A stretch of DNA of 64,000 bases. Source: a virus. Below are positions 46,447 to 54,143 of the stretch, piece by piece. Every line of letters starts with the position of its first letter. Position 1 is the stretch's first letter. The stretch lies in IMG/VR virus record IMGVR_UViG_3300023296_000994, one strand, 5' to 3'. Below the pieces are notes generated by a model that worked only from the letters and a program-made list of their open reading frames with translations, was not told where the DNA came from and did not search any database. Both the position numbers and the translations under genes were made by a program.

Positions 46447-46541
46447 TGATCATGTGATTAATTGATCAATATTGATCATGATCAAATTTGATCATTATTA
46501 ATTAAGTTAATTAGATTAATAGATCAATAGATCTATAGATC
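46447..46541. repeat. AT-rich cluster of 8 GATC sites (five TGATCA)
   Basis: GATC at 46448, 46464, 46474, 46480, 46490, 46522, 46530, 46538. Confidence 0.85.
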
Positions 46542-47042
46542 TTTAACTCGGTTTAACGATAGTTCAACACGGTTCCAATATGATAAAGTCACGGTTTTTT
46601 TCATTCCTTTTGGACCTCCATTCCAACACCGGGCGATATCTTCGTAGCTATGAAGGTTATAATGATTTATATAAATTTTCAGCATTTCAATTGAGGATGT
46701 CCGGTTCCACCTATCCTCTAATTTATAGTTTATAGTTTTCAATATTCGGTTAATGTCTTTGACCATACATGGTCTTATTTGTAGACAACCAACAGCATTT
46801 TCTTTTTTACAGTAAGCAGAATCATTATTACTTGATTCTACCCATATTAATGCTTCAATTATATAATGTATTGAGTCAATAATATCAGCGCTATTATTAT
46901 ATAATAATTGGGTATCAGCTCGGCAGTTTATATTTTGGGTATCAGTTCTGACTGAAATCTGATGTATTGGTACTGTGAGAGGCTCTATACGTAGCGTTCC
47001 GCTCAGGGCCCACACTACCATTAGTATTACGTACTTAATCAT
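46533..47042 (-). CDS. lysozyme-fold hydrolase (transglycosylase/i-type-like) with N-terminal hydrophobic signal
   Basis: ALIWVES, AVGCLQI, ARCWNGGPKG. Confidence 0.7.
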   Translation of the reverse strand: MIKYVILMVVWALSGTLRIEPLTVPIHQISVRTDTQNINCRADTQLLYNNSADIIDSIHYIIEALIWVESSNNDSAYCKKENAVGCLQIRPCMVKDINRILKTINYKLEDRWNRTSSIEMLKIYINHYNLHSYEDIARCWNGGPKGMKKTVTLSYWNRVELSLNRVKDL

Positions 47043-47064
47043 GTTAGAATGGGTCTAGTTAGCT

Positions 47065-47097
47065 AAAATAAGAATGGGGAAGCCGAAGCCTCCCCAT
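47065..47097 (-). terminator. rho-independent terminator after tmRNA
   Basis: ATGGGGAGGC-TTCG-GCTTCCCCAT then TCTTATTTT. Confidence 0.85.
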
Positions 47098-47100
47098 AAT

Positions 47101-47313
47101 AACCTTTACCGGCGGTCATACCGGGAACCGTAACGTAATCCTTTCGGATCAGGCTGCGATTGCAAACTGAGTGTCGCTGTTTAAGCGTGTGTAACCTCAT
47201 AATGTCCGTTGTATGCTGTCAATACCGGTCTACCCCGTTTATCACTTACCTAGTGGAGTAGCCCGCATCCGAGAGCGGGGTCCAGACATATCGTATACAT
47301 TAATCATCGGTTG
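47101..47313 (-). ncRNA. ssrA: circularly permuted (two-piece) tmRNA
   Basis: Acceptor piece (GGAC-CCCGC-loop-GCGGG-CTACTCC-A, ends 47254) precedes coding piece (GGGGTAGACCGGTATTGACAGC, starts 47236); 7-bp acceptor stem with G3-U70; tag SDTQFAIAA-stop at 47178..47149; outer ends approximate. Confidence 0.85.
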
Positions 47314-47363
47314 CGTCTTATAAGTATACCCGTTTTGATATACTTATGTGTTTTTTATAGATA

Positions 47364-47579
47364 TTATACCACATCGGGCATAGTAACTAATTCAACGTCT
47401 TTAAATGACATTTGAAACATACCTCTGATACCAGGCATGGTGAAAAATCCGTTTCCATCATGCATGTCATACGTCAATACAACTGTGTCGCCTTTTGCTG
47501 GATGGCCAAAAGCACCAAACGGTGGAGTATGATTTTTAACTACGTAAGTTACATTAATAACTTCGCTTGAATCTTTCAT
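47364..47579 (-). CDS. hypothetical protein
   Basis: 71-aa ORF. Confidence 0.45.
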   Translation of the reverse strand: MKDSSEVINVTYVVKNHTPPFGAFGHPAKGDTVVLTYDMHDGNGFFTMPGIRGMFQMSFKDVELVTMPDVV

Positions 47580-48174
47580 TATTTTTGTTTTATGTTGTTA
47601 TCAAGTAAGTAGAAACTTACATTTGGTTTTCGTGCCTCATCGTCGTTATAATCAATTGGTAAACCAATTGCGTCATCTTTACTTTTGATGACTATTGTAT
47701 GCTTCAAATTAAATTCGGAAATTAATTCATCACTTCGCCCACCATAACTGGCGGTCAATACCAGATTATCTGGAATGTCATTAATTCTCTTAACCCAATA
47801 TTTCAAGCTTTTAGTATAAGCCCAGAATTCAACATTTGGATTATCTCTACATAATTGTAACCACATATCGAAATAAGCCTGAGAAAAAAGTCACCAGCTG
47901 AATGTATTCTAACTGATGTTGCTTTGTTAGGTATAGTTGGTATACCACCGTCTTTAGCAAATTCAAAGTTATTCCATCTGTGTTGTCTTACACCAGGAAA
48001 ACGTTCTGCACTTGCTGCGTAACATCGATAAGCTTTACTTTTGTTTTCAAACTTTCCTGTTATTCTATCTACCTTAACTAAACATTCATCGGCAAATGGA
48101 CATGTAAACCCAGTAGGTAAATTCCATTCGTATACGATTCCTGTATAGTAGGTTGTTTTCTTAACAAACTTCAC
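47579..48174 (-). pseudogene. GP88-like (radical-SAM-like) protein split by a 1-nt frameshift
   Basis: TCP..C..CYA, RIHSAGDFF then (SQAYFD)MWL..FWAYTKS; one more T in the T6 run at 47884-47889 restores one frame. Confidence 0.65.
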
Positions 48175-54101: not shown

Positions 54102-54143
54102 TGTTATGTACTATTCTTATTGTTATAAGTAGTGTGATTCTTA

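Follow-up and report, generated by a model that had tools for sequence, protein, structure and literature searches.

tmRNA is the RNA that frees stalled ribosomes, and pseudoknot 1 is usually held to be the most important of its pseudoknots. Two-piece tmRNA is a textbook case of repeated gene permutation with three recognized bacterial lineages, and mitochondrial tmRNA genes are usually permuted too. The cellular permuted genes of Alphaproteobacteria, some Betaproteobacteria and Cyanobacteria are arranged as acceptor piece, spacer and coding piece, carry the G3.U70 pair, have their break downstream of the tag and join the two pieces through P2. Phages also carry two-piece tmRNAs. Such genes have been published for Methylophilales phage Melnitz, pelagimyophages and cyanophages, and 53 of 133 unique phage tmRNAs were called two-piece in one survey (PMC9004378). 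The genes of this Melnitz type are alphaproteobacterial or cyanobacterial in kind and are found by ARAGORN; the one in Melnitz ends in a glutamine riboswitch. The Rfam family RF04321 (tmRNA_permuted) was recently formed by merging the two-piece models of the alpha, beta and cyano types and is restricted to the tRNA-like domain (PMC11915505).

The locus described here lies in a stretch of 64,000 nucleotides from the IMG/VR virus record IMGVR_UViG_3300023296_000994, and this whole stretch is referred to as the window. A sequence-only reading had proposed that it contains a compact, circularly permuted two-piece tmRNA gene of a Bacteroidota phage. The background of that reading, which named bacterial lineages as the classical sources of two-piece tmRNAs, was incomplete, because phage-borne ones had already been published (PMC9004378). 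The phage is uncultured, marine and T4-like. Its genes in the window are all encoded on one strand, have a G+C content of ~34%, and include genes for a T4-type portal, capsid, baseplate wedge, terminase and an SbcCD-like nuclease. The closest relatives of the capsid, at 37–55% identity, are those of an uncultured jumbo phage, Flavobacterium phage immuto, Microcystis phage Mel-JY01 and Rhodothermus phage RM378. Based on these capsid relatives and on tags shaped like the SsrA tag of Bacteroides, a Bacteroidota host is plausible.

The element is a self-contained gene on the minus strand of the window (47326..47065), in which a promoter-like box is followed by the 3′ tRNA-like half, a 17-nt spacer, the 5′ half, the tag, a hairpin, a pseudoknot and a terminator (Table 1). 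Its neighbors on the same strand are a 71-codon ORF (47579..47364) and an SLT-like lysozyme gene (47042..46533), which lie 320 nt apart. An independent ENA assembly of the same phage contains an identical copy. All elements listed by the sequence-only reading were recovered in the sequence at the positions it had given, including the GAAA hairpin and the terminator behind the tag, both of which are also kept in the orthologues described below. The end that it had assigned (47101) was too short, since the terminator and a conserved arm of the pseudoknot extend beyond it; the gene reaches to approximately 47065, and the H-type pseudoknot was absent from that earlier description. A GP88-family gene (PF17338) at 47579-48174 on the minus strand consists of two overlapping ORFs of 123 and 95 codons, which could be due to a frameshift, to splitting of the gene or to the assembly.

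Table 1 Features of the permuted tmRNA gene in the window. All features are on the minus strand.
Feature	Position	Evidence
Promoter-like box TACTTATA, family TAYTTATA	47326..47319	Intergenic enrichment; orthologues
Acceptor piece (5′ end, ~47313, inferred from the box position)	47313..47254	RF04321 alignment; match to permuted-phage-tmRNA model; covariation
P2, 3′-side strands	47312..47309, 47302..47297, 47285..47283	Four compensatory pairs in P2
GGAC	47283..47280	
T-stem, 5 bp	47279..47275 with 47266..47262	Covariation, 5 of 5 pairs compensatory
T-loop, 8 nt	47274..47267	
Acceptor 3′ strand, 7 nt	47261..47255	Three acceptor pairs covary
Discriminator A	47254	
Intervening spacer, 17 nt, removal expected	47253..47237	
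5′ part of coding piece, without pseudoknot 1	47236..47179	
Acceptor 5′ strand, contains G3.U70	47236..47230	Pairs with 47261..47255
D-loop analogue, GAC at its end	GAC 47220..47218	
P2, 5′-side strands	47218..47216, 47205..47200, 47196..47193	
Resume context, single-stranded, 9 nt	47187..47179	
Tag frame, nine codons AGC..GCC (SDTQFAIAA)	47178..47152	
Stop codon UGA	47151..47149	
P5-like hairpin, GAAA loop, stop codon within 5′ strand	47151..47136	Helix 100% paired; one compensatory pair
H-type pseudoknot, S1	47124..47121 with 47112..47109	One compensatory pair
H-type pseudoknot, S2	Loop 47119..47114 with 47104..47099	
Intrinsic terminator region, 10-bp GC-rich hairpin and U tract	47097..47065	Strong terminator prediction at 47097..47074; two compensatory pairs

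The gene shares with the cellular permuted tmRNA genes the order of the pieces, the G3.U70 pair, the P2 connection and the position of the break. It differs from them in lacking an encoded CCA and pseudoknot 1, in having only one 3′ pseudoknot and in the size of the mature RNA, which would be ~234 nt. Like the genes of Melnitz, the pelagimyophages and the cyanophages, it is permuted, resides in a T4-like aquatic phage, is preceded by a likely promoter of its own and contains the full tag frame. The differences from this phage type are the absence of pseudoknot 1, a tag of the GE..YA.AA type, and the fact that the alpha, beta and cyano models match the lineage of the window gene in the tRNA core only. 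For the orthologues of the window gene, this match to beta_tmRNA spans model positions 80–163 and scores 33 bits versus a cut-off of 84.

Standard tools did not report the gene in the window. ARAGORN found three tRNAs and no tmRNA there, both at default settings and with thresholds relaxed down to 80%, and Rfam at gathering thresholds gave no tmRNA match in the window. When the scan was run without a threshold, RF04321 matched 47302..47149 with 43 bits (E = 3.9e-7 over 801 bases), which is below the gathering cut-off of 47 bits of this family; the lower score is explained by the additional base in the T-loop and the absence of the hairpin of pseudoknot 1. The separate lineage models for the alpha, beta and cyano types (RF01849, RF01850 and RF01851) had no match in the window up to an E-value of 10. 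The standard one-piece model RF00023, relative to which the order of the halves is reversed, had no match in the window. When a model was constructed from 14 further permuted phage tmRNAs, leaving out the window copy, its only hit was this element, with 61.7 bits (next best 12.4 bits), although this test is partly circular because the members had been fished with a pattern taken from the window. No match resulted when 50,697 deposited phage genomes were searched by blastn with the tmRNA genes of the window and of one orthologue (G002, see below). Thermodynamic predictions for the precursor and for the two pieces did not reproduce the tmRNA fold, and we therefore relied on comparative evidence.

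Orthologues were found through the capsid. Related capsids are encoded by 70 viral contigs, of which 39 were long enough for a tmRNA search. Among these 39, only the closest, IMGVR_UViG_3300005613_000042 (G002/L160; 73% capsid identity), carries a permuted tmRNA, which scores 56.2 bits with RF04321 and thus exceeds the cut-off of 47. One-piece tmRNAs are present in three more distant capsid relatives and in a contig reached via its RNA ligase gene. Two relatives are rated 100% complete; one has no tmRNA and the other is one of the three one-piece carriers. The named relatives immuto, RM378 and Mel-JY01 lack a tmRNA, whereas that of the jumbo phage is of the one-piece form. A third permuted copy, on IMGVR_UViG_3300025674_001021 (L166), was retrieved with a pattern derived from the region conserved between the window and G002 and scores 56.9 bits with RF04321. 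ARAGORN calls both orthologues as permuted tmRNAs, with the tags GEYSYAVAA (G002) and GEPMYAVAA (L166).

All three copies occupy the same site, directly upstream of the same SLT-like lysozyme gene and behind a TAYTTATA box, which in both orthologues reads TATTTATA and has the same distance as in the window. The permuted order of the halves is identical in both orthologues, their spacers are 17–18 nt long and A/U-rich with no conserved sequence, and they also encode no CCA. The discriminator is A in the window and in G002 and G in L166; in the latter (~12395) this G stands beside an otherwise intact alanine-type acceptor stem. Neither the GP88-family gene nor the 71-codon gene is present in the orthologous region of G002. 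Synteny with the SLT gene was also tried as a route to orthologues and was dropped, as the closer ones were reached through the capsid relatives. In SLT homologues at 52–65% identity, a 72-codon gene abuts the SLT gene and no tmRNA is found there. Since the small gene leaves no room for an RNA in these distant relatives, the cassette of promoter, tmRNA and terminator is apparently specific to the sub-lineage of the window, G002 and L166.

For counting base pairs, the proposed structure with its nine helices was mapped onto the three-way alignment of the window, G002 and L166. Standard pairs are formed in 97.3% of the cells across the three copies. In total, 16 of the 50 pairs changed on both sides, compared to 1–2 in controls with the 3′ partners slid by 1–3 columns; these counts come from three sequences, two of them close to each other, and from a structure first drawn on the window copy. 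In this copy, none of the nine helices is disrupted. In the 7-bp acceptor stem, G3.U70 is invariant across the three copies. The helices S1 and S2 of the H-type pseudoknot are paired in 100% of the cells, with two one-sided changes besides one compensatory pair. The P2-like helix that the sequence-only reading had drawn was partly borne out, as its CAG/CUG, 6-bp and 4-bp segments are kept with covariation, but its CAUA/UAUG segment is not conserved. The energy of the P2 duplex alone is modest (z = −1.4).

In all three copies, the last P2 helix is followed by just 13–14 unpaired nucleotides before the resume codon. Pseudoknot 1 is therefore absent from the whole lineage, in agreement with the earlier statement that the gene has no room for it. 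The extra P2 segment, which is formed with the leader of the acceptor piece, is predicted to occupy its place.

The tag reading frame provides a further line of evidence. Nine codons followed by UGA are conserved in the window (SDTQFAIAA), G002 and L166, and the resume codon AGC at 47178 is homologous to the codon that ARAGORN assigns in both orthologues, so that the start of the tag agrees with the earlier reading, and a lack of conservation of the tag frame, which would have refuted that reading, was not observed. Position 1 of the tag is S or G, position 2 is D or E, positions 3–4 vary freely, position 5 is F or Y, position 7 is I or V, and positions 8–9 are Ala in all three copies with synonymous changes. 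Hence, the C-terminal (F/Y)A(I/V)AA and the length of the tag are conserved, and this variation is what would be expected of an SsrA degron. The resume codon of the window copy encodes Ser, which is unusual. The native SsrA tag of Bacteroides is GETNYALAA (bioRxiv 10.1101/2025.03.18.644028); it has the same length as the tags of the orthologues and the same G-E-x-x-Y-A-x-A-A pattern. This likeness supports a Bacteroidota host and a tag that may be tuned to the proteases of the host.

A 45-codon ORF starting with ATG (47200..47063) overlaps the element and could indicate a small protein gene, with the similarity to tmRNA arising by chance. This ORF was not called by gene callers, and its frame is not kept in the orthologues, as a 1-nt indel shifts it between the copies, so that it is not the selected frame. 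The E-values of the covariance models and the covariation across helices likewise speak against a chance resemblance. A small protein gene or a chance match is thus extremely improbable, and the resemblance of the element to a permuted tmRNA is far beyond chance.

Taking together the RF04321 score of the window copy, the two syntenic orthologues with their higher scores, the covariation and the conserved tag frame, the element very probably represents a compact type of circularly permuted tmRNA gene that is encoded by the phage and functional, in line with what had been proposed. The sequence itself, the conserved structure with its covariation, the conserved tag frame and the synteny were observed directly.

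The strong reduction of this RNA and its lack of pseudoknot 1 would also fit a tRNA-like decoy, another role that the earlier reading had considered. Such an RNA would bind host SmpB, AlaRS or a nuclease and thereby block trans-translation, with no tagging. Phages can gain by blocking host quality control, and a tag-less tmRNA-like RNA of mycobacteriophage DS6A is reported, as cited in PMC11915505, to block host trans-translation. However, a pure decoy needs neither a nine-codon frame nor a degron-like C-terminus, a stop codon within P5 or a resume context, and all of these are kept in three of three copies. The conservation of the tag makes a decoy role very unlikely.

The window copy differs from both orthologues in its T-loop, which has 8 nt instead of the canonical 7 nt owing to one extra C, and in which a G replaces a conserved A. 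An insertion in the T-loop together with a Gly-to-Ser change of the resume codon could have crippled a once-functional permuted tmRNA, so that the window copy would be decaying or inactive; its lower RF04321 score (43 bits versus 56–57 bits in the orthologues) and the fact that ARAGORN finds both orthologues and not the window copy would be in line with such decay. The nine intact helices, the open tag frame and the canonical AIAA end speak against it, as does the use of the same loop in dozens of other tmRNA genes. Together with a proper T-stem and an acceptor strand, the same T-loop 8-mer is present in ~40 IMG/VR contigs (loci L042-L079), in seven contigs from JGI metagenomes (L027-L033) and in a few genomes of Chloroflexia (L036, L037, L040 and L041), and the genes concerned are of both the one-piece and the permuted kind. 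Because the identical loop was found with perfectly covarying stems in 17 permuted and 14 one-piece tmRNA genes, and the pairs of the tRNA-like domain show strong covariation in 14 permuted examples, the 8-nt loop is apparently a recurrent working variant rather than damage. Moreover, ARAGORN misses 25 of 28 tmRNA genes carrying the 8-nt loop, so its failure on the window copy reflects the finder and not the gene. The loop is not the sole obstacle for ARAGORN, since swapping in a 7-nt loop in silico did not restore detection and other features must also block it. Decay of the window copy is thus unlikely. Our literature search found no description of the 8-nt T-loop variant.

The 8-nt T-loop noted by the sequence-only reading is therefore present but not special, being shared with ~40 other viral contigs and missing from the orthologues. 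It was considered as a lineage marker linking the window gene to other permuted phage tmRNAs and was rejected, as both true orthologues have the canonical loop. The permuted phage tmRNAs with the 8-nt loop (L027, L034, L042, L055, L061 and others) share with the window gene the T-loop 8-mer and the permuted order; most have short spacers of 7–35 nt, and some lack an encoded CCA. They differ by retaining the pseudoknot-1 region (60–95 nt from GAC to the tag, versus 39 nt in the window) and by mostly AND-type tags, and in an Rfam scan of six of them, the match to the beta or alpha models covered a larger part of the gene in five. Because the window's own orthologues have a 7-nt loop, the shared T-loop would reflect convergence or an exchange of arms and not common descent. 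On the small metagenome contig of L027, which also has two tRNAs and the permuted tmRNA, a group I intron match (62.8 bits) was found at 1149-1366.

The absence of an encoded CCA, where A 47254 is followed by CUA, had been described correctly but is likewise not special, since none of the three tRNA genes of this phage encodes it, and the same holds for several tmRNAs of other phages. Given these tRNA genes, post-transcriptional addition of CCA is expected. The TAYTTATA motif occurs in 20 coding-strand copies in the window, and 16 of these 20 lie within the 11% of the window that is intergenic, a count that is inflated by the A/T-rich spacers. These intergenic copies are mostly located 4–44 nt before a start codon or a tRNA, including tRNA-Ser. 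It is thus likely a phage promoter box, and the behavior of the motif agrees with the promoter assignment of the sequence-only reading. Examples on the minus strand are at 54131, 51362, 48496, 46338, 30025, 23001, 20424, 9421, 5627 and 2923. The motif resembles the T4 late promoter.

For processing, charging, SmpB binding, tagging and expression timing, we draw on the established biology of the tmRNA family. One transcript would start a few bases past the TAYTTATA box, near 47313, and end at the terminator. RNase P would cleave 5′ of G 47236, the 3′ side of the acceptor piece would be trimmed to A 47254, and a host enzyme would add CCA, as it must for the phage's own CCA-less tRNAs, with the 17-nt spacer being discarded. 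The resulting acceptor piece (~63 nt with CCA) and coding piece (~171 nt) would be held together by the 7-bp acceptor stem and three P2 helices, and the extended P2 stack would stand in for pseudoknot 1. The G3.U70 pair would direct charging by alanyl-tRNA synthetase, and the charged RNA, together with SmpB and EF-Tu of the host, would enter stalled ribosomes. Resumption of translation at AGC 47178 would append (A)SDTQFAIAA, a degradation tag resembling that of the host.

Among all loci fetched, the resume context together with the first two codons is common to the window lineage and one other gene only, the one-piece tmRNA L071 on IMGVR_UViG_3300003885_000024. The tag of L071 (GESRFKMAA) is also of the GE type with nine residues, its 5′ motif UUGACAG is the same, and its T-loop is the 8-nt one of the window copy. 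Unlike the window gene, it has the standard one-piece order, a length of ~350 nt and a clear pseudoknot 1 (~45 nt) at the very position where the window lineage has its 13–14 unpaired nucleotides. L071 appears to be the best candidate for the ancestral form of the compact lineage.

An independent permutation event is plausible for this lineage. It is suggested by the lack of any lineage-model match beyond the tRNA core, by the GE-type tag and by the resume context in common with the one-piece, GE-tagged phage gene L071. On the other hand, the RNA is short and fast-evolving, and tags can converge on those of the host. That this was a fourth independent permutation, born in phages from a one-piece tmRNA of the Bacteroidota type and with the P2 extension replacing pseudoknot 1, is a tentative proposal that we regard as somewhat doubtful. 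Two-piece tmRNAs of phages as such were already known; particular to this lineage are the missing pseudoknot 1 and the Bacteroidota-style tag. Our literature search found no description of a pseudoknot-1-less two-piece lineage in Bacteroidota-type phages.

The results also bear on the annotation of tmRNA genes in phages. Gaps arise because ARAGORN overlooks most genes with the 8-nt loop and because RF04321 at its gathering score misses the window gene. Conversely, RF04321 and ARAGORN can both falsely call a permuted tmRNA where a tRNA gene adjoins another tRNA gene or a one-piece tmRNA gene. Such a case was IMGVR_UViG_3300009506_000002 (G001/L002), in which the region 465-888 scored 53.5 bits with RF04321 and was thus above the threshold. 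We rejected it as a permuted tmRNA; in this match, a tRNA-like gene contributes its 3′ end and the one-piece tmRNA behind it (RF00023, 143 bits) its 5′ end. Among the 'Permuted' entries in Table S1 of the phage survey are crAss-type phages and Cellulophaga phage phi4:1 (PMC9004378). The phi4:1 call (KC821632.1, 11919-12580; L172) is an ARAGORN artefact that joins halves of different tRNA genes in a cluster, with a 'tag' running through a tRNA gene, and RF04321 had no match in the phi4:1 genome. A different configuration was seen in jumbo phage LR756508.1, where a second tmRNA-model match of 112 nt (414804-414915, 58 bits; L086) occurs in addition to a one-piece tmRNA and may be a tag-less, tRNA-like mini-tmRNA.

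This phage lineage fits none of the three bacterial two-piece lineages and carries a Bacteroidota-like tag, and it may thus represent a further origin of the permuted gene. If it were indeed the product of a fourth permutation, its RNA would be one of the smallest tag-encoding tmRNAs. The tags would further indicate that phages tune the tag to their host. Finally, a natural tmRNA of ~234 nt that lacks pseudoknot 1 would, if it works, be a useful minimal model for the positioning of the resume codon.
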